A stretch of 64,000 nucleotides of DNA from the NCBI GenBank assembly GCA_001189165.1, contig LFCO01000001.1, positions 156,848-220,847 on the forward strand. Reading direction: 5' to 3'. Shown one piece after another: positions 18,818 to 60,181 of the stretch; position 1 is the stretch's first letter; each line of letters begins with the position of its first letter. Source of the stretch: Parcubacteria bacterium C7867-005. Lineage in GTDB: Bacteria; Patescibacteriota; Minisyncoccia; Phycocordibacterales; Zambryskibacteraceae. The position numbers and the translations under genes were made by a program. The notes beneath the pieces were generated by a model. It saw only the letters and a list, made by a program, of their open reading frames with translations, ran no database searches and was not told the DNA's origin.

Positions 18818-18920
18818 ATAGCAAGAATAGCTTTTTTTATGTGTTTTTACGAGGCTATTGACATTCGTATATCAGTGTGACATTCTTATGGAAGAACGCC
18901 CACCTCAATCTGGAAGGTCC

Positions 18921-19340
18921 ATGAAGAAGCGTACGCTGGTCTCGTTCGGCATCACCACGGTCGTCATCTTGCTCGCCCTCACTGTCACTCAGACGCTCTG
19001 GAGGGACGTCGACTACAAGATTGAGATCGGCTCGATCATCTCTTTCGAGGATTCGTGGGGAGCAAGCGCGGGAACTATGGGTGAGAATTGTCTCGCCCCA
19101 AGCTTCGGCCGGGCGCGTGTCGTGGCAGTAGACGGCGCTTGGGTCACCCTCGAGGATGCCGGCGCGTACTACTGGTCCTGGACCAACACGCCTGGGTGTG
19201 ACAGGTTCCAAAGAACTCGCCACTGGGTGAGAAAGAACATCATGAACAAGGCCGCGATCGAAGCAAGGGCAGCCAAGCACGACAGCCACTTACAAGAAAC
19301 GAACCTGGCTGACTATCTTGCAGATCAAGAACGCCAGTAA
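18921..19340 (+). CDS. GC-rich small signal-anchored protein (cassette 2, 139 aa)
   Basis: GGAAGG 5 nt upstream of ATG 18921; MKKRTLVSFGITTVVILLALTVTQ signal/TM; strong GC3 bias in this frame; own terminator at 19370. Confidence 0.6.
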   Translation: MKKRTLVSFGITTVVILLALTVTQTLWRDVDYKIEIGSIISFEDSWGASAGTMGENCLAPSFGRARVVAVDGAWVTLEDAGAYYWSWTNTPGCDRFQRTRHWVRKNIMNKAAIEARAAKHDSHLQETNLADYLADQERQ

Positions 19341-19369
19341 GTACTTTCCCTCTCAAGAGAAGAGGGTGC

Positions 19370-19403
19370 GCTCACCGGGACCAGTCTCGGTGAGCATTTT
19401 TCA
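19370..19403 (+). terminator. rho-independent terminator (GCTCACCG/CGGTGAGC stem, then ATTTTTCATTTTATTT)
   Basis: 8-bp stem 19370-19377/19388-19395 followed by a T-rich tract. Confidence 0.7.
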
Positions 19404-19445
19404 TTTTATTTAACATTCCCCATATTTGGTAACCTACGATACCGA

Positions 19446-19474
19446 TTGACAGTGGCATATTGAATCAGTATTGT
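19446..19474 (+). promoter_or_regulatory. sigma70-like promoter TTGACA-17-TATTGT for cassette 3
   Basis: -35 19446-19451, -10 19469-19474. Confidence 0.55.
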
Positions 19475-19516
19475 GGCGAAAGGAACACACAATCACAAGC
19501 ACACAAGCGAGGTTCC

Positions 19517-19855
19517 ATGATAGTGAAAGAGGAAGTTCGTACGGACATGGTGATCGAGTGCACCACGGATGACACTGGGAGATGGCACTTCAGGAAGGCT
19601 GGTGAGGAGGTCGAGGTGACCTTCTGCTCTGGCGCAATCGTCTTCGTCGAAGGTATTCCCGAAGAATCCAAGAAGAGGTTCGCGGTTCGTTCGGACAGGC
19701 CCAGGGCCACCGTCGAAGTTCGTGGTGACAAGATCAGCTTCGCCTTCGGCAGGCAGACAAGGGCACCGTACATCCCCACCCGTGAGAAACACCGCGTGAT
19801 GATCACCGTGAGGTCCGTCCCCCACAAGGGACACAAGGAACGCCAAACCGCCTGA
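19517..19855 (+). CDS. GC-rich hypothetical protein (cassette 3, 112 aa)
   Basis: GAGG upstream of ATG 19517; MIVKEEVRTDMVIECTTDD...; promoter and terminator flank it; the two antisense ORFs were rejected (no signals). Confidence 0.55.
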   Translation: MIVKEEVRTDMVIECTTDDTGRWHFRKAGEEVEVTFCSGAIVFVEGIPEESKKRFAVRSDRPRATVEVRGDKISFAFGRQTRAPYIPTREKHRVMITVRSVPHKGHKERQTA

Positions 19856-19880
19856 GAGGGCGGTTATATTATTTTGCTTT
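19846..19880 (+). terminator. rho-independent terminator (AACCGCC/GGCGGTT stem, stop codon in loop, then ATATTATTTTGCTTTTTT)
   Basis: 7-bp stem 19846-19852/19859-19865 and a T-run. Confidence 0.65.
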
Positions 19881-20468
19881 TTTGCCGAGGTTGAAAACTT
19901 TGCGTTTGAGGTTTTCTCTACGGCTCATGCCAAAGTGTTTGAGGTAACCGAATTTGTGAACGTAGATAGGTGACAAACCAGAGAACCACAGGATCCCCTT
20001 CTTTAGCTCATTTGTTGTATCTCCAAATATAATTCTCTGGATAATAGGTGCCGTGTCAGAGGTGATGACCATCGCAGCTGATTTACCTTTCAGCAACCTC
20101 TTCCACATGTACCCACCGGAGACGAAGTTGTAAGCGAACCCAGGCAACCATACACGGTCGAACAACCCCTTTAGTAAAGCGGGCATCGTAGACCACCAGG
20201 ATGGATAGAATATAACAAAGTGGTCAGACCAACGAACGTTTTCTTGGAAAGAAAGTAGGTCAGGCTCGAGCTCTTGGCGGAGTCTGTATCCGTGGTGGAG
20301 GATGGGGTCAAACTGCATATCTCCGATGTTCATACGGCGAACCTCGTGACCTGCTTCTGTGGCTCCGCGTTCATATTCATTGGCCAATGTGGAATTCAAA
20401 CTATCCTCATCTGGATGCCCTAAGAGGATAAAAATCTTTTTTTTCTTTGTATTGAATAGTCCAAACAT
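19869..20468 (-). CDS. flavodoxin-like fold NAD(P)H dehydrogenase (quinone) family protein
   Basis: KIFILLGHPDEDSLNSTLANEYERG...HFVIFYPSWWSTMPALLKGLFDRV matches the NQO1/MdaB-type flavodoxin_2 family. Confidence 0.8.
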   Translation of the reverse strand: MFGLFNTKKKKIFILLGHPDEDSLNSTLANEYERGATEAGHEVRRMNIGDMQFDPILHHGYRLRQELEPDLLSFQENVRWSDHFVIFYPSWWSTMPALLKGLFDRVWLPGFAYNFVSGGYMWKRLLKGKSAAMVITSDTAPIIQRIIFGDTTNELKKGILWFSGLSPIYVHKFGYLKHFGMSRRENLKRKVFNLGKKAK

Positions 20469-43655: not shown

Positions 43656-43922
43656 ATGAGACAAGATATCAAAACAAAAGCCGTCCGTCGATTAAAAATT
43701 GTGGAGGGACAAATCAGAGGACTTCAAAAGATGGTTGAAGACGAGAAATACTGTATCGACATTATTACCCAGGCATCCGCTATTAAAGAGGCTCTTACCG
43801 GGATCGAGAGTCTGGTCCTTGAAAACCATCTTTCGACCCATGTGGTACATCAAATGAAACATGGAAGTGAAAAGAAAGCCGTCGATGAGATCCTTAAGGT
43901 TTATAAACTAAAGCGTAAATAA
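43656..43922 (+). CDS. csoR: copper-sensing transcriptional repressor CsoR (DUF156)
   Basis: 88 aa, YCIDIITQASAIKEALTGIESLVLENHLSTHVV with the conserved Cys/His metal ligands of CsoR/RcnR. Confidence 0.85.
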   Translation: MRQDIKTKAVRRLKIVEGQIRGLQKMVEDEKYCIDIITQASAIKEALTGIESLVLENHLSTHVVHQMKHGSEKKAVDEILKVYKLKRK

Positions 43923-43925
43923 AAT

Positions 43926-46253
43926 ATGAATCATCCTACCAAAACCTACAGAGTCAAAGGAATGCACTGTGCGTCATGTGCAGGTATCATCGAGAAGACT
44001 TTCAAGAAAACGGAAGGGGTTCATTCCGCAGAGGTGAACTATGGGACCGAAAGGGCAAAAGTAGTTTTGGATGAGTCAAAAGTAAGTGCTCAAGAACTTT
44101 CAAAGAGAATAGAACCATTGGGTTACTCCCTAGCCCTGGACCAGGAGATGTCACATGAGCATGGTAGTCAGTCAGCAGAAGAGATGGGTATGTCTGCGGA
44201 CGAGCATGCGGCTCATCTTGGAATAGGTCAGTCAAAGAAAGAGAGGCTTGCTGAAGTTGCAGATATGAAAACTAAAGTCTGGTCCGCCATTCCTCTTGCA
44301 ATCTTTGCAGCACTAGTTATGGCATGGGATATCCTGGCTCAGTATGGGGTTGTGGGAGAAATGAGTTATACGATCAAAGAATTTATTCATCATCTCCTTC
44401 CAATACTAGCGACATATATCCTCTTTGTTGTAGGAAGACCTTATCTACTCGGCTTTTACCGCTTTCTCCGCTACGGCAAGGCAAACATGGATACCCTTAT
44501 CGGTATTGGAACTACTGCTGCATTTTTATACAGCTTTGTAGTTACCGCTTTTGAGGAAGCGCTTCGACCTTTCATAAATGTTGATTACCAATACTACGAC
44601 GTCACGATCGTGGTTATTACCTTTATCGCACTCGGCAAATATCTTGAAGCTCGATCAAAGATAAAGACTGGTGATGCAATAGAAAAACTTCTTAATCTTC
44701 AGGCAAAGACAGCACTTGTGATCCGAGATGGAAAAGAGATAGAGATTTCAGTCAATGAAGTAAGGCATGGTGATCTAATTATCGTTAAGCCGGGTACAAA
44801 GATTCCAGTAGACGGAGTCATTACCGAGGGATCTTCCTTTATCGATGAATCAATGGTTACCGGAGAGCCAATGCCTGCACAGAAAAAGACTGGAGACAAT
44901 GTCGTATCTGGCACTATAAATACAAGCGGTTCATTCACTTTTAAGGCTACAAAGGTTGGGTCCGAAACACTTCTTGCTCAGATTATAAAGATGGTTGAGG
45001 ATGCTCAGGGTAGTAAAGCGCCAATTCAGGCGCTCGCAGACAAGATTTCATCAATCTTTGTACCTATTGTTCTAGTGATTGCATTCCTTACCCTTGGAGC
45101 ATGGCTCATCATCGGATCGCAATATCTGGGCTTCTCCCAAGCGCTTTCATTCGGCCTCGTATCATTCGTAGGTATCCTGGTTATTGCTTGCCCATGTGCT
45201 CTCGGTCTTGCTACGCCAACAGCAATCATTGTGGGAGTTGGCAAAGGAGCTAAAGAAGGTATTCTCATCAAAGATGCTGCAACACTTGAAAAACTTCATA
45301 AGGTAAATACGGTTGTGGTTGATAAAACAGGGACCATTACTAAAGGCAAACCAACGCTCGTCGATATACAAAACATGTCTGATTTAAAAGATGACAATCT
45401 TGTATCAATACTTGCTTCGCTTGAGAAAAAATCAGAACACCCTATCGCACACGCGATTGTGAGTTACGCTCAGGAAAAGAATATCTCCGTATCCGACATC
45501 TCTGACTTTGAGGGTATACAGGGCAAAGGACTCAAAGGAACTATTGGTGGTACGGAATATTTTGTTGGTAATGCAAAGCTTGTAAGTGACCTCGGACTTT
45601 CTTTTGATGTAGCCAAGCTTAATGAGTTTACTTCTCAAGGTAAAACACCTGTCATTCTAGCCAGCAAAGAAAAGGTTCTCGGTTTTGTGATGGTGGCAGA
45701 TGAAATAAAAGCTGAATCAATAGAAGCAGTCAAAAATCTTCATGCTCTTGGAATCAAAATGGTCATGCTCACCGGAGATGATGAGGAAGCAGCAAAATAT
45801 ATAGCATCACTCGTTGGAATCGATGATGTCGTGGCTCATGTTCTTCCGCAAGATAAGCTAAAGAAAATTCAAGAGCTTCAATCACAAGGTCGGGTGGTGG
45901 CCATGGCTGGTGATGGAGTAAATGACGCTCCTGCACTTGCCCAGGCTGATGTGGGTATCGCCATGGGGACTGGAACCGATGTGGCCATCGAGTCCGCAGG
46001 CATCACACTCCTTGGCGGAGATATCTCAAAGCTTGTTAAAGCAATTAAGCTTTCAAAGATCACTATGCGAGGAATTAAACAGAACCTATTCTGGGCATTT
46101 ATCTACAACATTGTAGGCATTCCGCTTGCGGCAGGAGCTTTGTATCCGGTTTTCGGATGGCTCCTAAACCCTGTCTTCGCAGGATTCGCCATGGCGATGT
46201 CTTCGGTATCAGTCGTATCAAACTCACTGCGCATTAAGGCTAAAAAGTTATAA
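43926..46253 (+). CDS. copA: copper-translocating P1B-type ATPase
   Basis: N-terminal HMA GMHCASCAG, CPC motif ACPCALGLATP, DKTGTIT phosphorylation site, GDGVNDAPAL hinge. Confidence 0.95.
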   Translation: MNHPTKTYRVKGMHCASCAGIIEKTFKKTEGVHSAEVNYGTERAKVVLDESKVSAQELSKRIEPLGYSLALDQEMSHEHGSQSAEEMGMSADEHAAHLGIGQSKKERLAEVADMKTKVWSAIPLAIFAALVMAWDILAQYGVVGEMSYTIKEFIHHLLPILATYILFVVGRPYLLGFYRFLRYGKANMDTLIGIGTTAAFLYSFVVTAFEEALRPFINVDYQYYDVTIVVITFIALGKYLEARSKIKTGDAIEKLLNLQAKTALVIRDGKEIEISVNEVRHGDLIIVKPGTKIPVDGVITEGSSFIDESMVTGEPMPAQKKTGDNVVSGTINTSGSFTFKATKVGSETLLAQIIKMVEDAQGSKAPIQALADKISSIFVPIVLVIAFLTLGAWLIIGSQYLGFSQALSFGLVSFVGILVIACPCALGLATPTAIIVGVGKGAKEGILIKDAATLEKLHKVNTVVVDKTGTITKGKPTLVDIQNMSDLKDDNLVSILASLEKKSEHPIAHAIVSYAQEKNISVSDISDFEGIQGKGLKGTIGGTEYFVGNAKLVSDLGLSFDVAKLNEFTSQGKTPVILASKEKVLGFVMVADEIKAESIEAVKNLHALGIKMVMLTGDDEEAAKYIASLVGIDDVVAHVLPQDKLKKIQELQSQGRVVAMAGDGVNDAPALAQADVGIAMGTGTDVAIESAGITLLGGDISKLVKAIKLSKITMRGIKQNLFWAFIYNIVGIPLAAGALYPVFGWLLNPVFAGFAMAMSSVSVVSNSLRIKAKKL

Positions 46254-46255
46254 TC

Positions 46256-47287
46256 ATGACTACGCAAACACAAAAATATACCTTTCACGTACATGGTATG
46301 CACTGCAATGCTTGTGTACTCATGACGGAAAGCGAACTTGGAAATCTTCCAAATATCACCCACGTTAAATCAAGCCTTAAAAATCATTCAGTAGAAGTTA
46401 CTGGAGACTTCGGTAATAAGACACCGGAGCAGATTGCAGAAGAACTCACTATACCACTCAAACCTCATGGTTATATTGTTTCGGTTGAAAAACAAATCAA
46501 AGAAAAGAAATGGGCGGATTTTAAAATCGCTATGCCGATCGCACTAGGCTTTGCAGTTCTGTTTGTGGTGCTTCAGAAAATGGGAATAGTAAATCTTGTA
46601 AGCGCAGGCAATGTTACTTACGGCACAGCGTTTGTAGTTGGTATCATTGCATCGCTTTCAACATGTATGGCAGTTGTTGGTGGTTTGGTCCTATCGATGT
46701 CGGCTACCTTTGCAAAAGAAGGTGACAGGGTACGACCTCAGCTCATGTTCCATACTGGCCGAATAGTATCGTTTTTTATCCTGGGTGGTGTGATCGGAGC
46801 GATTGGATCTGCATTTACGCTCAACACTTCAGCCACATTCATTCTGAGTCTCATCATCGGTATTGTCATGCTCATTCTCGGTATTAACCTTCTTGATACA
46901 TTCCACTGGGCAAAAAAACTGCAGCCGTCAATGCCAAAGTTTATTGCCAAGCACGCTCATGGCGTCTCGAAATTCAACCACACTCTTACACCACTTCTTG
47001 TCGGTATCGCTACGTTCTTCCTACCATGCGGATTCACACAATCAATGCAGCTCTACACCCTTACCACAGGTTCATTCTTGCGGGGCGGTTTGACCATGCT
47101 CGCTTTTGCACTTGGTACACTTCCGGTCCTGGCGCTTATCAGCTTCAGCTCATTCAGTATTCAGAAAAGCTCAAGGGCAGGAATCTTCTTCAAAACTGCC
47201 GGACTGATCGTCATTATGTTCGCACTCTTCAATCTTATTAATAGCTTGGTCGTGATTGGGGTTATACCGCCAGTCTTTAACTTCTAG
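46256..47287 (+). CDS. HMA-domain membrane protein (TauE/SafE- or DsbD-like permease fused to a metal-binding domain)
   Basis: N-terminal HMA GMHCNACV; 6-7 TM helices with paired Cys (LSTCM ... FLPCGF); copper-operon context. Confidence 0.7.
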   Translation: MTTQTQKYTFHVHGMHCNACVLMTESELGNLPNITHVKSSLKNHSVEVTGDFGNKTPEQIAEELTIPLKPHGYIVSVEKQIKEKKWADFKIAMPIALGFAVLFVVLQKMGIVNLVSAGNVTYGTAFVVGIIASLSTCMAVVGGLVLSMSATFAKEGDRVRPQLMFHTGRIVSFFILGGVIGAIGSAFTLNTSATFILSLIIGIVMLILGINLLDTFHWAKKLQPSMPKFIAKHAHGVSKFNHTLTPLLVGIATFFLPCGFTQSMQLYTLTTGSFLRGGLTMLAFALGTLPVLALISFSSFSIQKSSRAGIFFKTAGLIVIMFALFNLINSLVVIGVIPPVFNF

Positions 47288-47300
47288 TATAATTCCAATT

Positions 47301-47687
47301 ATGAAAGCAGCTATTATCTCAGTTATCGTCGCAATAGTCCTCATCGATGGAGCTTTTATACTCACCAGAAGTGGTGACACCGGACAGACCGTAAACGCAA
47401 ACAACGTCAGCATTGTTGATGGAAAACAAATTATAGAAATAACTGCTAGAGGTGGTTACCAACCTAGAAAGAGCGTTGCTGAGGCGGGTATTCCGACAAT
47501 CATTCGATTCAACACCAAGGGGACCTTTGACTGTTCATCATCTGTCCGTATTCCAAGTCTTGGCATAAGCAAATCACTTCCACAGACAGGATCGACAGAT
47601 ATCGATATTGGGAGCGGCAAACTCGGCACGCTTCAGGGTTCTTGCGGAATGGGGATGTATCCGTTTGAAGTCGAATTTCAGAGCTGA
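47301..47687 (+). CDS. cupredoxin-like small secreted protein
   Basis: N-terminal TM/signal anchor; C-terminal ...FDCSSSVRIPSLG...GSCGMGMYPFEVEF resembles copper-binding cupredoxin-like domains of cop operons; start moved to ATG 47301 to avoid overlapping the upstream gene. Confidence 0.6.
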   Translation: MKAAIISVIVAIVLIDGAFILTRSGDTGQTVNANNVSIVDGKQIIEITARGGYQPRKSVAEAGIPTIIRFNTKGTFDCSSSVRIPSLGISKSLPQTGSTDIDIGSGKLGTLQGSCGMGMYPFEVEFQS

Positions 47688-50295: not shown

Positions 50296-50703
50296 CTAAG
50301 AACTGTTCTTTTCTAGATACTCGTCGATGGCCTCTTTGGCCTTAGCCACAACTTCTTTTGGATTGTACTCACTCTTTACTAAATATTTTACCGCTCCGAG
50401 TGCCAAGGCCTTTTCAGCGTCTTCTTTGCCAGCTAGATTCGTCAGACAAATAACAACGGGAATTTTTTTGAATTTCTCATTGTTTTTCATTTTTTCCAAT
50501 ACTTCTAGTCCATTCAGCTTTGGCATCATTATATCGAGCATCATCACCACAGGAAGTGGGTCCATTTTTTCAAGTTTTTCCAAAGCTTCTATACCATCTG
50601 AAGCCATCTCCACTTCATAACCAGATAATTCAAATATGTTCTTGTACATATCAGACATCAACGAATCGTCCTCTACTATAAATACTTTTATTTCTTTGGC
50701 CAT
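50296..50703 (-). CDS. response regulator, receiver domain only (CheY-like)
   Basis: KVFIVEDD, MLDIMMP (phospho-acceptor Asp), conserved T and K; no output domain. Confidence 0.85.
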   Translation of the reverse strand: MAKEIKVFIVEDDSLMSDMYKNIFELSGYEVEMASDGIEALEKLEKMDPLPVVMMLDIMMPKLNGLEVLEKMKNNEKFKKIPVVICLTNLAGKEDAEKALALGAVKYLVKSEYNPKEVVAKAKEAIDEYLEKNSS

Positions 50704-50749
50704 TGGTTTTTAGTTATCTTGTTTACTGAATTCGCAGACAGAGCATATA

Positions 50750-52936
50750 TTATGCAACGACGACAGGGAGGGACAACCTGAATGTACTACCCTCGCCCAA
50801 ATCGCTCTTAACTAATTCTATTGTACCACCCATTTCTTCAGCCAAAAGCTTGGAGATATACAGCCCCAAGCCCGTGCCCTTACTGGAATCTCTGGTCAGT
50901 ATCTTTTCACCCGCCTGTTGGAATTTCCTAAACAACAATGACTGATTTTCCTTGGATACTCCCTTACCGGTGTCTTCGATGATCACATCCGCGAACCCTT
51001 CTCTGGCCTGAAGGGAGATGGTGATACCCCCTTTCTCCGTATAATTTATCGCATTGCCCAAAAGATTATTGATAATTTGTCTTGTCCTTTCAACATCAGC
51101 AAAAGCTTCTGGCACAGCCTTATCAGAAAGCTTAAATTCAAGTGATAATTTTTTATTTTTGGTGAGCTGTTCCGTCTCTTGGACAACCTGATTTATCATT
51201 CTAACAAGATCTATGGGTTTACTATCAAAGACTATTTTTCCTTGCTCAAGTCTAGACATGTCCAAGAAATCATTCACAATTCCTATCAAACTTTTGCTTG
51301 CAGTATGTATATTATGAATCATGTTTTTCTTCTTTTCTTCATCAAGTTTGGCCCAGTAGTCGAGCATCATATCCGCATTACCACGAATAGCAGTAAGTGG
51401 TGTTCGGAGTTCGTGGCTAGCCACAGCAAAAAATTCTTCTCTAGAACGCTCAGTAACCTTTCTCTCAGTTATATCCTCAAGGAGGATGACGTAGCCGATT
51501 TTATTCTTTGATTCATCAGCCAATAGAATTGGAGCAATAATGGCGCGGAGTGACTTTTTATTAAAGAATATCTCGTTTATTTCACAAACTCTTTCTCCCT
51601 CAAGGCATTTTTTAACCTGATCTTTCAGGTCGAAGCTCTCTCCCATCATCTTAGATACATCTCCTACAGTAAGTTCCTTATCTTCATTTATTCCTAATAA
51701 ATCAACAAGGGCATGATTTTTCAAGAAGATCGTGTCATCTACATTAGCGATGATAAATCCAAGGGACAAGCTGTTTATTGATGCGAGCAACCTTGCCTTT
51801 TCCTCATTCAATTCTTTTGTTCGCTCGACAACTTGTTGCTCAACATTTTTCATTTGAACAGCTAATTTCTCTTCGAGGATCTTGTCATCCTCGAGCAAAT
51901 TAATCATGGCTTTCTTTGTTTCCTCGAGGTCAACAAGTTTTTTGTCGAGTTCTTGAGTTCTATCTTTTATTTTTGCTTCCAAACCAATCGTATACTGAGA
52001 AATGCTCTTCACCATGCCATTGAAGGCATTGGCTAGTGTCTCAAGCTCGTCATTTGTATTTATATGGGTCACCGTATCGAGCTTTCCCTTACCAAACTCC
52101 TCAACAGCAGAAACTAGCTTATAGAGTGGGTTTAAGATGAATTGCCGAACAGACAAAATAGTACCCAGGCTAAAAAATATAGATCCTATAACTGATATTA
52201 GAACTAGCCTTCTCCTCGCCTCTTGCTCTGTTTCATCAAGGGCACGTGTGCTTTTTTCTATGGAGTCATTTGTCCGGCTTATTAACTCTCTCATTTTTAT
52301 ATTTGCGAGCTCAGTAAACTCACGGGCCTTGTCTATAGAAATTTTTGATTTCTGTTTCTCTTGTTCTGAAGCTATATTTCTATTTTCTTTTTTAAGGTTT
52401 AAGAAGTTCAATCTGTGCTTGATAGCATCTTCTGCGTTGTTAACAAAGCCCGTATAGTAAAGATTTATCTCACCAGTGATCTGCGAATCACCCTTCATCA
52501 CCCCGTCGACCACAAGTTCATCCCTTAACCCCAATTTAATCCATTGATCATAGTTTTTACCACCTGAAGAATTTTTAAAAGCATCCGTCTCACTACCCCA
52601 CATGAGAGCTGCCATAAACATATTAAAACGATCAGTAGATTCACTGAACACCCTTACATAACCACTAACATCAGGTATTTTTTTGGGGTCGTCTATATCC
52701 AAAACACTCTCAAGAGCTGTTTGCCCCTCAACAGCAGCGGACAGCGACTCCTGCAGGCTCCGTACCACAGGAACATTTGTTTTAGTAATATTATCTGCAG
52801 ATGATCTAATCCGATTCAATTCAAAAATCTGAGTCCCAACAATACAAATGACAAAAAATGTAAGGGAAATGTAGAACGGTGCGAGCTTCCACTGTATTCC
52901 AAAAAAAGACTTGTTTTGTGGGCTATTTATAGTCAT
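50750..52936 (-). CDS. sensor histidine kinase (periplasmic sensor, HAMP, coiled coil, PAS, HisKA, HATPase_c)
   Basis: Two TMs flanking a sensor domain of about 230 aa; H-box FAVASHELRTPLTAIRG; N/G-boxes NLLGNAINYT, DTGKGV, GTGLGL. Confidence 0.88.
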   Translation of the reverse strand: MTINSPQNKSFFGIQWKLAPFYISLTFFVICIVGTQIFELNRIRSSADNITKTNVPVVRSLQESLSAAVEGQTALESVLDIDDPKKIPDVSGYVRVFSESTDRFNMFMAALMWGSETDAFKNSSGGKNYDQWIKLGLRDELVVDGVMKGDSQITGEINLYYTGFVNNAEDAIKHRLNFLNLKKENRNIASEQEKQKSKISIDKAREFTELANIKMRELISRTNDSIEKSTRALDETEQEARRRLVLISVIGSIFFSLGTILSVRQFILNPLYKLVSAVEEFGKGKLDTVTHINTNDELETLANAFNGMVKSISQYTIGLEAKIKDRTQELDKKLVDLEETKKAMINLLEDDKILEEKLAVQMKNVEQQVVERTKELNEEKARLLASINSLSLGFIIANVDDTIFLKNHALVDLLGINEDKELTVGDVSKMMGESFDLKDQVKKCLEGERVCEINEIFFNKKSLRAIIAPILLADESKNKIGYVILLEDITERKVTERSREEFFAVASHELRTPLTAIRGNADMMLDYWAKLDEEKKKNMIHNIHTASKSLIGIVNDFLDMSRLEQGKIVFDSKPIDLVRMINQVVQETEQLTKNKKLSLEFKLSDKAVPEAFADVERTRQIINNLLGNAINYTEKGGITISLQAREGFADVIIEDTGKGVSKENQSLLFRKFQQAGEKILTRDSSKGTGLGLYISKLLAEEMGGTIELVKSDLGEGSTFRLSLPVVVA

Positions 52937-52945
52937 CAGTTCGTA

Positions 52946-53581
52946 CTACAATAAATTTTTTATGACAGATAGATCAAATACGCCCTTGAGCACGCCGTGA
53001 ACTTCTCCTGATGCGGGGTCTATGATTGGCAGATATATGGATATAGCTTCAGTCTGTGAGCTATCGTCAAATTCTATGTCTCCGTGAAAAGTTCTCCCCT
53101 TACCCTCATTAAAGCTTTTTATCCACCAATCCTCGTCTGCCTGGTAATAATCGCTAGTCTTCTCTGTCTGACCGACGTTTAATCCAAAAGCATCAGCCAC
53201 GAAAATCTCTTTAAAACCAGGATTTTTCTTTTGAAACTCTAGGAGATGTGTGGCTGTCTTGTTTTCTAAGAACATTTGCGTGAATTGACTTATGCCCATC
53301 GATTCTCTCCATGTTTTATCTATAGCAAGAATGTCTTCTAAACTAGTGTTTTTGTTTATCTCGTTTGATTTTTTAGTTTCTTCAATTATCTCTGTGACCA
53401 GTACTAGAGTTTTTAAAAGTGATATCTGCTGATCAATTATATTTTCGATTTGTGGGGCAAGAGTGGCTGTCTCTTTAATCTCTGTTTTAGTAGATATATC
53501 TTTTTTATTTGCTGTATAAAGATAAATACCACCCGAAGAAATTATTATTACAAGAACAACAAAAGTGACAATTTTTTTCAT
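52946..53581 (-). CDS. membrane-anchored extracytoplasmic sensor-like (Cache/PDC-fold?) protein
   Basis: N-terminal TM then a 190-aa domain; fold assignment is inference; operonic with the kinase. Confidence 0.5.
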   Translation of the reverse strand: MKKIVTFVVLVIIISSGGIYLYTANKKDISTKTEIKETATLAPQIENIIDQQISLLKTLVLVTEIIEETKKSNEINKNTSLEDILAIDKTWRESMGISQFTQMFLENKTATHLLEFQKKNPGFKEIFVADAFGLNVGQTEKTSDYYQADEDWWIKSFNEGKGRTFHGDIEFDDSSQTEAISIYLPIIDPASGEVHGVLKGVFDLSVIKNLL

Positions 53582-53583
53582 AT

Positions 53584-54315
53584 TTAATGTAACTTATTTT
53601 CAAGCTCGGTAATCTGTGCTTTCAGGTCGGCCATCTTTATCTCTCTACCCACCATCAACTTATTCACCCTCTCTAATTCTGTGTTTTTATCAGTCAGTAG
53701 CTTATCCATATTCTTGATTTCAGTGATGTCGTTTTCAATCTCAACAAAACCCACTATTTCTTCTGTCTCTTCATTAAAAATTGGGGAGATTGATATCTGT
53801 GCAGTGTAGATATCGCCACTTTTCTTTTTGTTAACCATCTCGACACGGAAAACATCCTTCTTAGTGACGATACTTTTAAACATTTCCACATATTCGTTCT
53901 CGGTTAAATGCTCCATCCACTGCATCAAGTTTTTACCAATAGACTCTTCTTTACTAAATCCAGTAAGTCTTTCTGCTGCTCCATTCATATAGACAACGAT
54001 GCCGTTTTTATCAACAATGACGATGTGCCCACTCGTGTTTTCAACCGCTACTTTATATTTCTGCAAATCGACTGTCATATCAGAAGCAATTTTTTCAGCC
54101 CGTACGTTTGCTGATGAAAGGCCATACACCATAGAGTAAATCAAAAAACTGATCAGGATGCCGATACCAAAATAACCATTCAACTGTGCAGTTGGGACAC
54201 CATTATTTTGTATAATAAACCACCTCCAGACTACATAGACAGTCCCTAGTGTGACTGCCAATACAATAAGATCAACGTGCTGTCTCAAGGCCCTTGCGGT
54301 CCTTTGCGTGTACAT
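53584..54315 (-). CDS. membrane protein with PAS domain and C-terminal coiled coil, no output domain
   Basis: Two TM helices; PAS-like VENTSGHIVIVDKNGIVVYMNGAAERLTGFSKEESIGKNLMQWM; coiled-coil tail. Confidence 0.6.
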   Translation of the reverse strand: MYTQRTARALRQHVDLIVLAVTLGTVYVVWRWFIIQNNGVPTAQLNGYFGIGILISFLIYSMVYGLSSANVRAEKIASDMTVDLQKYKVAVENTSGHIVIVDKNGIVVYMNGAAERLTGFSKEESIGKNLMQWMEHLTENEYVEMFKSIVTKKDVFRVEMVNKKKSGDIYTAQISISPIFNEETEEIVGFVEIENDITEIKNMDKLLTDKNTELERVNKLMVGREIKMADLKAQITELENKLH

Positions 54316-54354
54316 ACTTATATGATACTCTTTAAATAGATCAACACCATACCT

Positions 54355-55125
54355 ATGAAAAAATTATTGACGCTTCTCCTTGTCATAAATGTTCTGTGGT
54401 CAGTTTGGCTTTACAACATACCTGAACATGAGACTGCCGCAAATTTCTTATACAACCTTGCCTACGGATTAAATTTCCTAATCGCATCGATTGCCTGCTT
54501 GTTTTATATCAAGAAGCATCCACCCTATCGTAATATCTACATCGCCATGTTTGTTGGGAGTGCGGTTTTCTTTGTTGCCCAGCTTATTTGGCTTTATTAC
54601 AACCTCATTGCCCGTACAGAGGTGCCGTATCCGGGCATTGCAGATCTATTTTGGCTCCTCTTCTATCCATTTATTGGCCTGGGTTTCGCCTTGATTATGA
54701 AAAGGATTAAAATCAATTTTTCTCTAAGCAGGGTCTTCGAGATTTTCATCATATTTATTGCTATGTTCAGTATTATTAATTCTTTCATTTCTATAAACTC
54801 TGTCCAGGAATCCCTGCCCCTGCTTACTAAGGTACTCAATCTAACTTATCCATTCTTTGACTCTATTTTGCTTGCCCTGGCCCTAAGTACTATCCACAGC
54901 AAGGTCGGCTCGCTACAGCCACACATACTGTATTTCGTTTTCACTTTCATTATCCTAGCTTTTGCTGATACCTTGTTCGCTTATTCTACCTCTGCAGAAA
55001 GTTACTGGAATGGTAATTATGTAGATCTACTCTATGCTGTAGCTGGTTATTTGTTTGCGATGGGCATCATCTCCCTACCACAGCTCTTGCAAGCGAACGA
55101 ACAGAAAACTACTTTATCATTCTAG
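54355..55125 (+). CDS. polytopic (about 7 TM) membrane protein, possible 7TM sensor module
   Basis: Hydrophobicity pattern only; directly upstream of a receiver-only regulator. Confidence 0.5.
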   Translation: MKKLLTLLLVINVLWSVWLYNIPEHETAANFLYNLAYGLNFLIASIACLFYIKKHPPYRNIYIAMFVGSAVFFVAQLIWLYYNLIARTEVPYPGIADLFWLLFYPFIGLGFALIMKRIKINFSLSRVFEIFIIFIAMFSIINSFISINSVQESLPLLTKVLNLTYPFFDSILLALALSTIHSKVGSLQPHILYFVFTFIILAFADTLFAYSTSAESYWNGNYVDLLYAVAGYLFAMGIISLPQLLQANEQKTTLSF

Positions 55126-55134
55126 AGAACATAC

Positions 55135-55575
55135 ATGTCGGAGCAAAAAGATAAAATTATGATATTGGATGACGATCCACTTCTCGTGGATCTATATTCA
55201 ACAGCATTTACCTTGTTCGGCTACGAAGTAGTCACGGGGTTTCGCGGTGACGAAGGTTTGCAGAAACTAATAGACATGGATATCAAACCTATTATCATAC
55301 TGTCTGACGTGATGATGCCGAACATGCATGGATTAGATTTCTTGAGAAAGATTAAGGAGGACCCAAAATTAAAAACTATTCCTGTCGTACTTTTGACAAA
55401 CCTGGATGGAACAGATGATATCCGAAGAGGGCTGGAGCTCGGTGCGGTAACTTATATAGTAAAAAGTGCCTATTCACCAAAAGAAGTTGTGAATAAAGTT
55501 AAGGAAATCCTAGCTGGTTATGACAGAGAGAAAACTCCTGAGGTCAAGACTATTATAAAGGGCCTTAGCTCGTAA
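55135..55575 (+). CDS. response regulator, receiver domain only (CheY-like), paralog of 50296..50703
   Basis: IMILDDDP, ILSDVMMP, LLTNL, KS/AYSPKEVV, all alignable with the other receiver. Confidence 0.85.
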   Translation: MSEQKDKIMILDDDPLLVDLYSTAFTLFGYEVVTGFRGDEGLQKLIDMDIKPIIILSDVMMPNMHGLDFLRKIKEDPKLKTIPVVLLTNLDGTDDIRRGLELGAVTYIVKSAYSPKEVVNKVKEILAGYDREKTPEVKTIIKGLSS

Positions 55576-57007
55576 GATAGATCGTGAGTCGGTAGAGGGG
55601 TAAAATAAGGCCCAAAACGATCAAAACGACGATCAGGATGGTCATCTGATTCGTAGTTTCCGCACTATGGACCAGAGCACCGGGTGTTGTGCTCAAAACC
55701 ACGGTGGCCACATCATTATCTTCACTGTTTTGAATTTTGAAAGACTTACCGATTATATCTTGATCCAATAATTTCATACTCCCCCAAAATTCATCTTTGG
55801 GAATAGATGTAGTAGACTCCGGCAAAAAGGTGGTGCTTGCATAAACTTTATTGTCTACAAATAAACTGGTTTCAAACCCTGAATTATCTTTGAAGGAATC
55901 GGTGAATTCTTTATCGAGCAGGTAACCAACCATGACAATACCTATAACCTTGCCCTGAAAATAAATTGGAGAAGTTGCTCGGATAGACAAACCCTCTGGG
56001 CCGACAACATCTACAGAAGTGGCACTTCTACCCTCTAGAGATTCTTGACCAACACTCTGACTAAGGAGATTTTCTCCTTGGGTAATAGGGAAATTATTCT
56101 TGAAATAAACAGAACCATCTCTTGATGCCACCGACATAAACTGAATACCTGTATTAGATAGAATACGATTTCCGATAGTGCTTAAATCTTCGATGTCACG
56201 AGCTTTGGCAGCGGATGCAAAATCTAAATTATTGGATATGATCTGGCTAGTAGCCAGAGCACGACTCTCCAAGCTGTCTATCTGCATATTTAGTATTTTT
56301 TCGCTAGCAGCAAGACCTCTCAATGTTTCGTTTTCTAAACTTCGCAAAAAGAAACTGGAGAAAGTAGTGACAATTAGTAACGCAATAAAAAGACCATTTG
56401 ATACGAAAATTATCAACATCTCTTGACGTACTCTAAAACTAAGCAGGTTCCATATCCAGAGTGTAATAGAGACAAACCCGAGGAATTTAAGCGCATATTC
56501 TAATATCCACATTATATTCAAAGACCAGGGATCAACGAAATTTGAGATAATTGAAGCGAGAGAAAGTAAGACGAAACCGAATGCGAGCCACTTAAGTAGT
56601 TTATTAATATCTTTGTAGTACTGCTTAAATAACAAAAAGCTCAGAAGTATCAAAAATATGGTTGGTAGAATATTGAAATTCGTAGCTATATTAAAAACTG
56701 GAAGAGCTAGAAATGCATAACTTGGTTTGTCAGGAAGTTTTTCAAAGGCGTAGCTCAGTAAAATACAAAGAAGGCCCACCGAATATACAGTTAAGGACAA
56801 ACGCAAAACAACGCTAGAACTACCGCCAACTGCACTGAAAATTTGCCACACACAGAGAGCCCAAAAACCAACTGATCTTATAAGGCTATATTTGTCTCTC
56901 TTGATTAAATAGGCCTTGAAAAAGAGCCACCCAGCAATAAAAAAGGTGATAGCACCAAACAATTCAATCCCCAAATGAAAGTTATTTAGAATTAAAAAAC
57001 TTGACAT
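55565..57007 (-). CDS. 7TM receptor-like membrane protein with extracytoplasmic Cache-like domain and C-terminal TM, no output domain
   Basis: About 7 N-terminal TM helices, a 230-aa soluble domain, terminal TM MTILIVVLIVLGLILPLY; domain fold inferred. Confidence 0.55.
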   Translation of the reverse strand: MSSFLILNNFHLGIELFGAITFFIAGWLFFKAYLIKRDKYSLIRSVGFWALCVWQIFSAVGGSSSVVLRLSLTVYSVGLLCILLSYAFEKLPDKPSYAFLALPVFNIATNFNILPTIFLILLSFLLFKQYYKDINKLLKWLAFGFVLLSLASIISNFVDPWSLNIMWILEYALKFLGFVSITLWIWNLLSFRVRQEMLIIFVSNGLFIALLIVTTFSSFFLRSLENETLRGLAASEKILNMQIDSLESRALATSQIISNNLDFASAAKARDIEDLSTIGNRILSNTGIQFMSVASRDGSVYFKNNFPITQGENLLSQSVGQESLEGRSATSVDVVGPEGLSIRATSPIYFQGKVIGIVMVGYLLDKEFTDSFKDNSGFETSLFVDNKVYASTTFLPESTTSIPKDEFWGSMKLLDQDIIGKSFKIQNSEDNDVATVVLSTTPGALVHSAETTNQMTILIVVLIVLGLILPLYRLTIYLTS

Positions 57008-57035: not shown

Positions 57036-57569
57036 TTATCTACCGAGCGCTTTGATTTTATCTTCTAAATCTTTTAGAACCAGTGGACCAACAATGACTT
57101 CCCGTTTTAATCCCGATCCATCTATAAATACAAACATGGGCAACACACTTATACTGTACGCGTCGCCCACAATACCTTCTATATCGAGTAATGTATCCAA
57201 GGTGATATTTTTATCATTCAAAACCTTGTTAACAACGTCCAAATCTTCTTGGCTATTGATAGCCAAAATTTCTAGATTTTTTGGAGAATAGCTAGCATAA
57301 TAGTCAGCCAAAGCCCCTAGCTGATCGACGGCAACTGTATTCCAGGACGTCCAGAAAAATAGAACTACATTCTTGCCACGTAAGTCAGAAAGTTTTATCT
57401 TGGTGTTTTGCTGATTCTCTAATACAAAATCAGTAGCAACAGGAATCTTGTTTAAACCAACTTTAAATCCGATGTTCTGAAAAAAGTGAGGTGCAAGAGT
57501 AAAGACGAAATACACACACAAAACGAGTATGAAAATAGAAGTAGATACGATAATTAGATTCTTTTTCAT
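57036..57569 (-). CDS. thioredoxin-fold (TlpA/redoxin-like) protein lacking the CxxC active site
   Basis: LRGKNVVLFFWTSWNTVAVDQL aligns with FWASWCGPC of TlpA but both Cys are replaced (S-W-N-T). Confidence 0.6.
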   Translation of the reverse strand: MKKNLIIVSTSIFILVLCVYFVFTLAPHFFQNIGFKVGLNKIPVATDFVLENQQNTKIKLSDLRGKNVVLFFWTSWNTVAVDQLGALADYYASYSPKNLEILAINSQEDLDVVNKVLNDKNITLDTLLDIEGIVGDAYSISVLPMFVFIDGSGLKREVIVGPLVLKDLEDKIKALGR

Positions 57570-60181
57570 ATGTCAAATAAATTAAAGAATCTATCTACGA
57601 AGGATGGTTTCTTGAGCCCCGCCTTAGTATGAACCTGATCTTTTTCCAGAACCCTCACATTAGCAATAAATTTTTCAACTTTATTTCCATAAACATCTTC
57701 TGCCAAAATACTTAGACGTGACACACCTAATTCATAGAAAGAAAGAGTGGCAGTCCTCAGACCAGAGTCTCTGTCCAGGGTCAAGTCCACCAGCCTATCA
57801 TTTACCTTAAAGACAATCTTTTTTGGATCACCGGCGATAGCAATCCTAAATAATGCCGTACTACTCGCTTCCATATTAAAGAAGCCTTCTTGATCTGGAT
57901 ATAAAATCTGATCATTTAAATCTAGAATGAAACTTCCAATCATAGGAGGTGTTGCGTCTACTATGAATTTTTTGGTGAGCGTTTTTGAAATATTATTTGC
58001 ACGATCTATCGCACGAGCAGACAACGTGTGCTCACCGTCTACAAGGCTGTTTTTATGATCAATTCTAAATCTGGAGTATTTTTCACCGACCGGACCACTG
58101 ATCAATGCCTCAAACCAAGCTGAATCGTCAATCTTGTACTCAATTATTTTTATCCCTGAAAAATTATCCCTACCCTCCCCCTCCAGACTAACTATTCTGG
58201 TTTTGGATATAACAACAGGAGCAAGCTGGGAGAAGAAATCGGAAGCAAGTATTGGAGACTGGTCGTCAAAAACTATTTTGAGGCCCTGAGCATTGGTCAC
58301 AATTTTACCACTTTCGGAAATTCCTCTGAGCACTATTTCAAGAGCGCCGGTTTTTAAATCAGCAAAAACCAAATCAAATCTTTCAAAAGCAGAGCCCCAC
58401 CGCCCATCTTCTGGTAAGATTGCCTTCCATGTTTTTTCATTATCCAAGCTTAGCTCCATTTTTACTAAAAGATCTTTTTTACTCCTGACCATACCGCTTA
58501 TCGTCTTAGATTTTGAAGAGGTAAATAGGCTATCGCTTTCTTCCAAAATAATAGCCGGGAGATCATTGGTTATGGTTATGGGGTGGCTTACAACATCTGA
58601 ACCCAGTGAACCGTCAGACACTGAAACTTTTATCAAGTAATTCGAACTGTCCCTGGCTCTTGTCGAATCCCAGACAAAATGCGATTCTTTGGTGTTCTGA
58701 TGAAGTGGTGACCAGCTTGATCCACTGTCGTCACTCAGCTCTATTTTATATGTGAGCGGATCATCGTTTATATCGTTTGCCTTCCATGAAATATTTATCA
58801 AGCCATTCAGCTTCAATGCACGGCTTTTTGGCTCAACCAAGGAAATAGTAGGTGGACTATTCACAAAGATGACTATCTGGGACGGCTCTGATAGGGCACC
58901 GAGCTCATCAACACTCACTAAACTTATCACGTTTCTACCCTTATCGAATTTCGGATTGAGGGCTATATCTTTCAAGCTAAATAATCCATCACTTTTTATA
59001 TTTTTTATGCGGTACTCTTTGGTATTGTTTACTTTGATAATTATTTCTTTGGCATTCACCGCCTTACCCGAAATAGATTCAAGAGTTGTGCTGGAAGTTT
59101 TTAGTCCATCCTTTGGTATATCCACTGTTGGTCTCGAAGGGGGGTCGAAACCGACAACGAAACCATCTCTATTCTCTACAATGTTCTTATTACCCGCCAA
59201 ATCTACCCCCTCTACATATACCTCAACCGGACCATCAAACCCCTTGATTGGGCTATACTGGCCGACAAAAATCCTTTTTGGAGCACCGAATCCAAAAGTA
59301 ACATCTATTGGTTCATGACGGAGTTGAGAAACTTTAAAAACAGGTGCGTAAATCAAGGATTCTGAACTCTCGATTTTGATTTGAACCGGCTCTCCCCTTG
59401 AAAAGCTGGGTGAGTATGTAGTTATAAAAGTTGGAGGAGTATTGTCTATGGTAATTGGGCCGTCTATATATTCACTGAAAGCACCGTCAGTATCAACTAC
59501 GTGAGCTTTTATCCTGTAATCCGAGCCATCTGGGAATTTCTTGGTGTCCCAATAAAAAGTACCTGTGGCCCTCAGGTTTTTTGCTAATTCAGAATATAGA
59601 TCATTGGATTTGGCATAAAACAAACTAACTGAATCTGTATCCAGTTGCCCTCCTTCTGATTCGTTATTACTTAAGTCATTCTTGTCTTCAGCTACATATT
59701 CTACTGGGACCAACCCAGAGATAAATACCCTACCAAAACTTTTGAAAAATTTTATAGTTGGTTCAAAATTAGTATAAGTACTATTTGATCCTCCACCACC
59801 GCCGCTACTAGCAGCCTGGCATTCTCCACCCAGTGGGTCAACGAAACAAACACTATCATTTGAGTCAACCCAATAATCAACCCCAGGATCTCCCGTTAGG
59901 TTGTAGCACTCTGTCATGTTTAGTGGTCCACAGAGATTGTCATCCGGATTCAACAAAACTCTAAAGTGAAGACCCTCAAAGCCCTGGCCGCTATAAACGT
60001 ATGGTGAACCACTCTGACCAGCCCAATATGATCCCTCACTACTAACTAAATAACCGAATGCGACACCTGGTTCTGTCAGTATAGGAGTAATGGACCCATC
60101 CTCATTATCAACAAGAGTCACACTTGCGAAAGCTGGGGTAACCCAAAAAATAAATAGGAATATTAAAAATAGTTTTTTCAT
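57566..60181 (-). CDS. large secreted cell-surface protein with Cys-rich N-terminal region and multiple Ig-like/beta-sandwich repeats
   Basis: Signal peptide MKKLFLIFLFIFWVTPAFA; Cys pairs (LCGPLNMTECYNL...SVCFVDPLGGECQ); Gly-rich linker; repeated beta-strand-rich segments of about 90-100 aa; 4-nt overlap with the downstream redoxin-like gene. Confidence 0.65.
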   Translation of the reverse strand: MKKLFLIFLFIFWVTPAFASVTLVDNEDGSITPILTEPGVAFGYLVSSEGSYWAGQSGSPYVYSGQGFEGLHFRVLLNPDDNLCGPLNMTECYNLTGDPGVDYWVDSNDSVCFVDPLGGECQAASSGGGGGSNSTYTNFEPTIKFFKSFGRVFISGLVPVEYVAEDKNDLSNNESEGGQLDTDSVSLFYAKSNDLYSELAKNLRATGTFYWDTKKFPDGSDYRIKAHVVDTDGAFSEYIDGPITIDNTPPTFITTYSPSFSRGEPVQIKIESSESLIYAPVFKVSQLRHEPIDVTFGFGAPKRIFVGQYSPIKGFDGPVEVYVEGVDLAGNKNIVENRDGFVVGFDPPSRPTVDIPKDGLKTSSTTLESISGKAVNAKEIIIKVNNTKEYRIKNIKSDGLFSLKDIALNPKFDKGRNVISLVSVDELGALSEPSQIVIFVNSPPTISLVEPKSRALKLNGLINISWKANDINDDPLTYKIELSDDSGSSWSPLHQNTKESHFVWDSTRARDSSNYLIKVSVSDGSLGSDVVSHPITITNDLPAIILEESDSLFTSSKSKTISGMVRSKKDLLVKMELSLDNEKTWKAILPEDGRWGSAFERFDLVFADLKTGALEIVLRGISESGKIVTNAQGLKIVFDDQSPILASDFFSQLAPVVISKTRIVSLEGEGRDNFSGIKIIEYKIDDSAWFEALISGPVGEKYSRFRIDHKNSLVDGEHTLSARAIDRANNISKTLTKKFIVDATPPMIGSFILDLNDQILYPDQEGFFNMEASSTALFRIAIAGDPKKIVFKVNDRLVDLTLDRDSGLRTATLSFYELGVSRLSILAEDVYGNKVEKFIANVRVLEKDQVHTKAGLKKPSFVDRFFNLFDI

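Follow-up and report, generated by a model that had tools for sequence, protein, structure and literature searches.

We analysed a signal-transduction gene island in a 64,000-nucleotide stretch of DNA from Parcubacteria bacterium C7867-005, a member of the Patescibacteria (contig LFCO01000001.1, positions 156,848 to 220,847 of the forward strand). This whole 64-kb stretch is hereafter called the window, and positions are given in its coordinates unless a related locus is named. A check of the open reading frames (ORFs) confirmed seven signalling-protein ORFs at 50296-57007. The ORF set corresponds to the public gene calls (NCBI GCA_002396705.1, DGYO01000004.1), and identical proteins are deposited for C7867-005. 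Domains were called with Pfam and NCBIfam, and gene-list searches for partners covered the 64-kb window. The island is made up of one complete HisKA histidine kinase (HK), two paralogous receiver-only regulators and four sensors without output domain, arranged as follows (aa, amino acids; nt, nucleotides; TM, transmembrane helix):

50296-50703, minus strand: REC1, 135 aa, Response_reg domain only; last gene of the kinase operon
50750-52936, minus strand: HK, 728 aa; TM, 206-aa ectodomain, TM, HAMP, acidic linker helix, weak PAS, HisKA, HATPase_c
51857-51910, minus strand: E-helix of HK (residues 343-360, AMINLLEDDKILEEKLAV, from the translation), the acidic helix in the interval between HAMP and PAS
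52946-53581, minus strand: Cache211, 211 aa; N-terminal anchor and a dCache_1 match below the cut-off
53584-54315, minus strand: PAS243, 243 aa; two TM, PAS, C-terminal helix; first gene of the operon
53587-53673, minus strand: K-tail of PAS243 (residues 215-243, ERVNKLMVGREIKMADLKAQITELENKLH, from the translation), a basic helix
54355-55125, plus strand: TM256, 256 aa, eight TM; divergent from the kinase operon, with a 39-bp gap
55135-55575, plus strand: REC2, 146 aa, Response_reg domain only; 9 nt 3' of TM256
55565-57007, minus strand: TMCache480, 480 aa; about seven TM, dCache_3, one more TM and a 6-residue tail; convergent with REC2, with an 11-nt overlap

An earlier note, written from the sequence alone, had described a minus-strand operon of a PAS membrane protein, a sensor-like protein, a kinase and a receiver, and the ORFs together with the Pfam and NCBIfam matches bear this out. 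The convergent receptor that it had described, with a 7TM part, a Cache domain and no output, is likewise present as TMCache480. Its divergent 7-TM protein with a second CheY-like receiver exists as a gene pair, but the membrane protein has eight helices, not seven, in its AlphaFold2 model.

HK matches HisKA with 68.6 bits and HATPase_c with 84.5 bits, and NCBIfam identifies it as a PhoR/WalK/PnpS-like HisKA kinase. The H-box is present at S507-H508 (SHELRTP at 507), as are all four boxes of the ATPase domain, N (NLLGNAINYT, 624), G1 (DTGKG, 655), F (FRKF, 669) and G2 (GTGLGL, 687). The protein ends with HATPase_c and has no fused receiver, indicating that it is a conventional HAMP-PAS kinase and not a hybrid one. 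REC1 and REC2, paralogues with 50% identity, match Response_reg with 80.8 and 68.8 bits, respectively, and contain no other domain. Their catalytic residues are all in place (EDD11-13, D57, T88 and K110 in REC1; DDD12-14, D58, T88 and K110 in REC2). With a HisKA kinase that has all its boxes and receivers that have a full acceptor pocket, the island is a two-component system. Judged from sequence, the kinase is catalytically complete and both receivers should be phosphorylatable. The top NCBIfam matches of the receivers are receiver domains of OmpR-family regulators, CheY models being among the weaker matches, and the best match of REC1 in the PDB is RR468 of Thermotoga maritima (E 1.4e-18). 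Both regulators being receiver-only, neither carries the DNA-binding or other output domain of a classical transcriptional two-component system. Indeed, as the earlier note had stated, no DNA-binding response regulator is encoded in the island or in the remainder of the window. With about five two-component genes per genome reported for Patescibacteria (PMC7137472), the island accounts for a large part of the signalling capacity that one of them would be expected to have.

None of the four sensors carries a conventional output domain. The dCache_1 match of Cache211 (31 bits, E 2.3e-7) lies below the Pfam gathering score of 45. However, its AlphaFold2 model, with a mean predicted local distance difference test score (pLDDT) of 91.5, has a Cache/PDC fold, and its top Foldseek matches are the sensor domains of KinD, DctB, Tlp3, DcuS, CitA and WalK (E 5e-7 to 1e-5, probability 1.0). 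Topology prediction places Cache211 outside the membrane, held by its N-terminal anchor. We collected 74 homologues of 171-268 aa, the few named ones coming from Parcubacteria, Kaiserbacteria and unclassified Patescibacteria. TMCache480 matches dCache_3 above the cut-off (57.6 bits) and sCache_3_2 with 34.2 bits, and ends 6 residues past its last TM helix, with no MCPsignal domain. Six homologues of 480-490 aa share this architecture without output, and BLAST finds counterparts at the same position in related loci. Cache211 and TMCache480 are thus both extracytoplasmic sensors of the Cache/PDC kind. We rejected the idea that Cache211 is a fragment of TMCache480, as the two share no similarity. 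PAS243 consists of two TM helices joined by a 9-aa loop and a PAS domain (PAS_9, 65.5 bits), and lacks a kinase domain. Kinase-less PAS proteins of 458-647 aa occupy the same operon position in relatives; PAS243 shares 33-43% identity with their C-terminal halves and is without the ectodomain of about 240 aa present in them. These domain assignments and the fold of Cache211 establish what the earlier note had proposed, a genuine signalling island with detached sensor modules and receiver-only regulators. We also observed that the names deposited at NCBI exceed the domains present: TM256 is called 'Sensor histidine kinase', TMCache480 'Methyl-accepting chemotaxis protein' and PAS243 'Sensory box/GGDEF family protein', and the named output domain is absent in each case.

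The fourth sensor, TM256, belongs to a large family that has no name. Its AlphaFold2 model (pLDDT 88.9) has eight helices. TM256 has no Pfam or NCBIfam match at E ≤ 0.1, nor do 12 members of its family at E ≤ 5, and the profiles of MASE1-6, 7TMR-DISM_7TM, HisKA_7TM, 5TMR_LYT and MHYT give no significant match to it. We therefore rejected its membership of any named Pfam or NCBIfam family. Similarity to rhodopsins and GPCRs amounts to a generic 7TM resemblance, with no Foldseek match at E ≤ 0.001, and no lysine is found among the invariant columns of the TM256 alignment, where a microbial rhodopsin would have its retinal-binding lysine; homology to rhodopsins or GPCRs was rejected as well. So was a paralogous relationship between TM256 and the 7TM part of TMCache480 (BLASTP E 0.62, hhalign probability 1.4%). 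A profile built from 12 homologues retrieved 7,349 cluster representatives at E ≤ 1e-3 and 2,422 at E ≤ 1e-10, and three loci only when it was run against genome contigs. Among the best 150 family members, most are stand-alone proteins of about 260 aa (229-300 aa), and about ten are long. In several of the latter the TM256 domain lies N-terminal to PAS-HisKA-HATPase_c, to GGDEF or to GGDEF-HD_5, and the domain also occurs N-terminal to HD-GYP outputs; the N-terminal region of these fused relatives is likewise without profile match. Because it precedes kinase and GGDEF outputs in fused relatives, a placement that is the hallmark of such domains, we read TM256 as a membrane input domain. In P0132, a protein of another Patescibacterium, the TM256 domain is fused to a coiled coil, PAS, HisKA and HATPase_c, and this fused module is 32% identical to residues 338-723 of HK. 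P0132 thus links TM256 to kinases of this type in the manner of a Rosetta stone. The invariant polar and aromatic residues of the family, N30, N34, PYPGxAD (91-97), YPFFD (165-169), ADT (204-206) and YWNGN..D (217-224), fall at outer helix ends or in outer loops by the positive-inside rule. Since these conserved polar residues map to the outer face in the predicted topology, they suggest an outward-facing binding site. TM256-like domains with 28-30% identity were also seen on contigs labelled as archaeal metagenome-assembled genomes, including Nitrososphaera sp. (L011, 805-1308; L012, 1986-2489 and 5160-5669), one of them near a kinase core. Because of its presence on contigs so labelled, the family is probably not confined to Patescibacteria.

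The island is kept in at least six related metagenomic loci. Six loci were collected by TM256 homology (L003, L005, L007, L010, L013 and L014), L018 by the K-tail scan described below, and L016 and L017 by homologues of Cache211. The recurring operon runs from a kinase-less membrane PAS protein through an extracytoplasmic binding protein and a HAMP kinase to a small receiver and/or a LytR_C protein, and the full order of PAS protein, binding protein and HAMP kinase is kept in L003, L005, L010, L013 and L014. TM256 is divergent from the sensor and kinase operon, with a gap of 7-39 bp, in all seven relatives examined, including L018. Small receivers are retained in most loci, as is a convergent polytopic Cache-type protein past TM256, sometimes accompanied by a receiver, while the genes outside the island differ from locus to locus. 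The slot of the binding protein is exchangeable, being filled by Cache211 in the window, by NMT1 in L003 and L005, by Peripla_BP_6 in L013 and by SBP_bac_3 in L014. L003 has an extra dCache_1 protein, encoded after the PAS gene and before NMT1, and in L007 PAS sensor and kinase form one protein (CHASE-PAS-HisKA-HATPase_c, 790 aa) that is followed by two receivers. A Cache211 homologue lies directly upstream of a HAMP kinase in L016, from Kaiserbacteria, and in L017, from another Patescibacterium. Residues 11-338 of HK, comprising ectodomain and HAMP, are 36% identical to the L016 kinase, and the kinases of the TM256 islands match residues 252-724, the cytoplasmic half, with 40-42% identity. 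Response regulators of related islands are likewise small receiver-only genes, that of L016 being a REC-REC protein with no DNA-binding domain, and the position and number of receivers vary among relatives. The claim of the earlier note that the island is atypical for a reduced genome is qualified by the recurrence of the same plan in relatives, and by the frequency of its core order in metagenomes (see below).

Three observations concern genes that accompany the related islands. A small LytR_C protein is encoded after the kinase or the receiver in L003 (1232-1756), L005 (2733-3269) and L014 (681-1178), and L014 also has a protein with a MEDS domain. These LytR_C and MEDS proteins are candidate downstream partners of the receivers, and have no counterpart in the window. 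An AbiEii toxin-like gene adjoins the island in L003 (10770-13313), L005 (10728-11946) and L013 (10153-12658). An AAA_14/DUF4143 ATPase gene accompanies the AbiEii-like gene in L003 and L013, and occurs alone in L007.

PAS243 ends with the K-tail, whose consensus is ELEKxNKLMVGRELKMVELKKEI. The helix N.LMVGRE.KM.ELKK is invariant at the end of PAS243 and of all its positional counterparts, and residues G223, R224, E225, K227, M228, L231 and K232 (PAS243 numbering) are invariant in our alignment (A4). The acidic E-helix of the kinases has the consensus TxxAMLNILEDxEEEK, with AM.N(L/I)LED about 30 residues past HAMP. The E-helix is present in all six kinases that have a separate K-tail sensor and in none of the four that do not (L007, L012, L016 and L017), loci that were chosen independently of both motifs (exact p = 1/210). 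A metagenome scan with the pattern RExKM[VAT][ED]LK returned at least 600 stretches, at least 256 of them encoding a PAS relative, and the best 80 loci were analysed. In 100 of the 102 occurrences of the K-motif in these 80 loci, it begins 15-40 residues ahead of the C-terminus, in proteins of 64-1322 aa, and no ORF in them has both the K- and the E-motif. Where at least 3 kb of downstream sequence was available (40 loci), a kinase core is encoded within 3 kb downstream on the same strand in 32, in 15 of them at a distance of -40 to +29 nt. A receiver gene directly follows the downstream kinase in 26 loci, and 25 of these 26 receivers have at most 180 aa. The E-helix was found in 30 of 49 first-downstream kinases versus 3 of 16 other kinases of the same loci (Fisher p = 0.004), with the proviso that the sampled K-tail loci are phylogenetically clustered and the statistics overstate their independence. 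Several further adjacent kinases have a degenerate E-helix, such as A.QNVL.DL. Some partner kinases are bare cores of about 300-370 aa, made of one to three tandem E-helices, HisKA and HATPase_c, and these bare cores are translationally coupled to upstream proteins that have 3-10 PAS domains and no kinase. The K-tail protein of L003 is a dCache_1 protein, not a PAS protein. The K segment has a net charge of about +1 and the E segment of about -2.8, and our own heptad analysis places the invariant arginine of the K-helix at a core position and gives the E-helix a broad hydrophobic face beside its invariant asparagine, glutamate and aspartate. Taken together, these data show that the core order of kinase-less sensor, kinase and small receiver or receivers is common in metagenomes. 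In some of these operons we also noticed two to four tandem receiver-only genes (117-140 aa) after the kinase (L030, 5170-6858; L032, 9128-10267; L029, 9112-9945).

Searches for the motifs elsewhere gave no further leads. Sequence searches of the PDB with the K and E helices yielded no significant chain, and a plasmid collection queried with K-tail and multi-PAS sequences returned generic PAS matches only, with no K-tail match. In the open-access literature, no description of the K/E pair was found by motif string or by concept, which is weak evidence of novelty, and no study of receiver-only regulators of Patescibacteria was found there either.

We read the island as one multi-input two-component system, in which a single HisKA kinase is assembled non-covalently with detached sensors and works through receiver-only output, a reading that we hold with about equal measures of confidence and doubt. 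In such a system, Cache211 would be an anchored extracytoplasmic ligand-binding co-sensor acting on the 206-aa ectodomain of HK, a role suggested because the Cache211-kinase gene pair is conserved and solute-binding proteins take the same slot in relatives. Accessory and solute-binding proteins play such a part for other kinases (QseG-QseE, CpxP-CpxA and HbpS-SenS). PAS243 would serve as a cytoplasmic or membrane sensor, and the co-occurrence of the motifs points to docking of its K-tail on the E-helix of HK past HAMP. Its signal would then enter just upstream of the kinase's own PAS domain and dimerisation and histidine phosphotransfer (DHp) domain, joining the transmembrane signal there. TM256 may sense an external ligand. 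Synteny and the fused relative suggest that TM256 and TMCache480 feed in by intramembrane contacts, perhaps with the two-TM hairpin of PAS243. By analogy with the sensory rhodopsin II (SRII)-HtrII pair, this hairpin, without the ectodomain of relatives, would be a plausible partner of TM256. Phosphate from His508 would pass to Asp57 of REC1 and probably to its paralogue REC2, and both receivers would act on their target through protein-protein contact.

At the junction between PAS243 and the kinase, we tentatively propose, with a little less confidence than doubt, that K-tail and E-helix are a dedicated and widespread docking pair that plugs kinase-less sensors (PAS, multi-PAS or Cache-HAMP proteins) into the kinase non-covalently, as a heteromeric bundle of helices at the entry point of signals into the DHp domain. 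Several points weigh against this proposal. About one quarter of the kinases beside K-tail proteins lack an E-like helix, so that the K/E link is not universal, and the K-motif is internal in L010 and L036, between two PAS domains. Because it can lie internally between PAS domains, the K-motif could be an ordinary PAS-flanking dimerisation helix, its co-occurrence with the E-motif stemming from shared ancestry. The K-tail would then be the usual homodimerising helix of PAS proteins and the E-helix an intramolecular signalling helix, the two hitch-hiking together through phylogeny, as the clustering of the sampled loci would allow (a near-identical tail is common to eight of them), and PAS243 would modulate the kinase, if at all, via PAS-PAS or TM-TM contacts. 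We consider this somewhat unlikely: the motif is almost always terminal whatever the size and architecture of the protein, the dCache_1 protein of L003 included, K and E never occur in one polypeptide, the two helices are oppositely charged, and sensor-less kinase cores translationally coupled to multi-PAS K-tail proteins begin with one to three tandem E-helices. Because TM256, Cache211 and TMCache480 lack a K-tail, synteny and one fusion are what links them to the kinase, a further point against the assembly as we propose it. To this we add that a promoter and terminator scan gave the same counts as in shuffled sequences, and that REC2 may be the partner of a kinase whose gene lies outside the window.

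Alternatively, the island could hold independent modules, with PAS243, Cache211, HK and REC1 forming one system, and TM256-REC2 and TMCache480 being separate neighbours by inheritance that serve, for example, a kinase encoded elsewhere, or have transport or envelope roles. TM256/REC2 and TMCache480 do lie on other transcription units, receivers vary in position and number among relatives, and TM256 is unrelated to the 7TM part of TMCache480. Moreover, because TMCache480 starts 28 nt past a redoxin gene that itself overlaps the preceding gene, it may be the last gene of an upstream Big_13/redoxin transcription unit. We nevertheless judge this explanation unlikely, since TM256 stays divergently adjacent to the operon in all seven relatives while the flanks change, a TM256-type domain is fused to a homologous kinase module in P0132, and a single kinase is present for two 50%-identical receivers. 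We find it quite improbable that the island is a phosphorelay or a chemotaxis/twitching circuit, as the earlier note had suggested. On that reading, the receivers would act as Spo0F-like relays or as CheY/PilG/PilH-like regulators of a motor or pilus. Receiver-only regulators are what CheY, PilH and Spo0F are, the CheY models among the weaker receiver matches agree with this, and in one distant Kaiserbacteria locus a Cache211-kinase pair has PilM and a pilin-like gene no more than 7 kb away. Against it, no histidine phosphotransfer (HPt) or Spo0B-like domain occurs in the island proteins or the window gene lists, and the kinase has no receiver; CheA, CheW, PilZ and pilus genes were found neither in the island nor in the window, no MCPsignal domain sits on the Cache receptors, and none of these partners is found in related islands either. 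The best receiver matches also point to OmpR-family receiver domains and RR468. A very improbable explanation is that the output-less sensors are non-functional decay fragments of multidomain kinases or chemoreceptors, left by genome reduction. The single 790-aa sensor kinase of L007, the ectodomain lost from PAS243 and NCBI names such as 'methyl-accepting chemotaxis protein', which suggest truncated receptors, would fit it. However, the operon genes are spaced by 2-9 nt with no frame disruption, every ORF has a start and a TM anchor of its own, and lengths and architectures are kept at 37-57% identity (among the Cache211 and TMCache480 homologues and in TM256, mostly about 260 aa). Because of the tight spacing, separate anchors and conserved lengths, we rejected gene decay or frameshift as the source of the split genes, and the conserved motifs and confident folds argue for selection.

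The genomic setting of the island offered some additional observations. The rest of the 64-kb window is housekeeping (ribosomal proteins, tRNA synthetases, UvrABC, MreB, TypA and others), and no further signalling genes were found in the window outside the island. Ahead of TMCache480 on the same minus strand, 57036-60181 encodes an 871-aa secreted Big_13 protein and the redoxin (gaps -4 and 28 nt). The islands of L007, L013 and L014 are likewise flanked by large surface proteins, with Pur_ac_phosph_N, fn3 and Big_13 domains, which weakly resemble the C-terminal portion of the 871-aa protein (identity 21-28%, E 1e-5 to 1e-10). On the plus strand, immediately upstream of the island region, genes for copper handling form a cluster (43731-47687). 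This cluster encodes a CsoR-type repressor (Trns_repr_metal, 63 aa), an HMA/P-type ATPase (43926-46253), an HMA-DsbD_2 membrane protein (46256-47287) and a cupredoxin-like protein. Further away, the interval 18000-20000 has a G+C content of 0.50 versus about 0.42 in most of the window, and contains overlapping ORF pairs on opposite strands (18855-19289/18858-19340 and 19460-19855/19465-19836) with no Pfam and no Rfam match. A 353-aa protein at 13107-14168 (minus strand) combines an N-terminal Sigma70_r4 domain with HARE-HTH, a pairing that looked unusual.

The signalling genes of Patescibacteria are very few, and to our knowledge none has been studied experimentally. This organism probably senses its environment or host mainly through the conserved seven-gene island. 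A large family of 8-TM sensor domains, as yet without a name, comes to light here, together with an exchangeable ligand-binding slot ahead of an otherwise conserved kinase. The island also contributes many further cases to the study of what receiver-only regulators target. If K/E docking holds true, several sensors could share or compete for one kinase, outputs would leave via receiver-only regulators, and the Parcubacterial island would exemplify a general class of sensor kinases that are modular and assembled non-covalently. Once confirmed, the K/E pair would be a portable rule for attaching separately encoded sensors to histidine kinases, and would bear on the integration of multiple signals, on the annotation of 'orphan' PAS proteins and sensor-less kinases, and on the engineering of modular biosensors.

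The island belongs to a known kind of two-component system, one whose accessory sensors are detached and whose outputs are receiver-only, and the 8-TM family and the K-tail/E-helix pairing are the two leads that it offers. Like HK853-RR468 of T. maritima, it pairs a HisKA/HATPase_c kinase with a stand-alone receiver of about 120-135 aa, but it differs from that system by its four output-less sensors and two paralogous receivers. We know of no detached sensor proteins described for HK853. Kinases that work with a separate accessory protein, or 'three-component' systems, include TorT-TorS, LuxP-LuxQ and YycH/YycI-WalK. Others are QseG-QseE (PMC12691602, PMC6075780), CpxP-CpxA (PMC4160245), LiaF-LiaS (PMC3543457) and HbpS-SenS (PMC4991794), in which an extracytoplasmic or membrane protein encoded beside the kinase gene is thought to set kinase activity (PMC12691602, PMC6075780, PMC4160245, PMC3543457, PMC4991794). 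The island resembles them in that Cache211 is an anchored PDC-fold protein encoded directly upstream of the kinase, and in that solute-binding proteins replace it in relatives. By contrast with these systems, it brings together several kinds of sensor, one of them cytoplasmic with a dedicated terminal helix, and its regulators lack a DNA-binding domain; no sequence relationship was found between its sensors and those accessory proteins. On genomic evidence, namely the adjacent gene pair, the exchangeable slot and the co-occurrence of motifs, HK is a candidate for an accessory-dependent kinase.

Two comparisons concern TM256. As in SRII-HtrII, an output-less sensor of the 7TM type is encoded beside a 2-TM protein with a cytoplasmic signalling part. 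However, the TM256 model resembles rhodopsin and GPCR bundles, SRII included, only generically; TM256 shows no significant sequence or Foldseek similarity to them, has eight helices and lacks an invariant lysine, and its contact with PAS243 is hypothetical. Like MASE1-6, 7TMR-DISM and HisKA_7TM, TM256 is a polytopic domain found N-terminal to kinase, GGDEF and HD-GYP outputs, but unlike them it has no Pfam or NCBIfam model, and its best-scoring members are mostly stand-alone. Finally, in the 'split histidine kinases' of the CheA3/CheA4 type, the catalytic (CA) and phospho-acceptor (DHp/P1) parts reside on two polypeptides that must associate (PMC3591291). The island similarly spreads its function over polypeptides that would associate, but it leaves the kinase core whole and places the sensor domains on separate chains, with the K-tail/E-helix pair at the junction.

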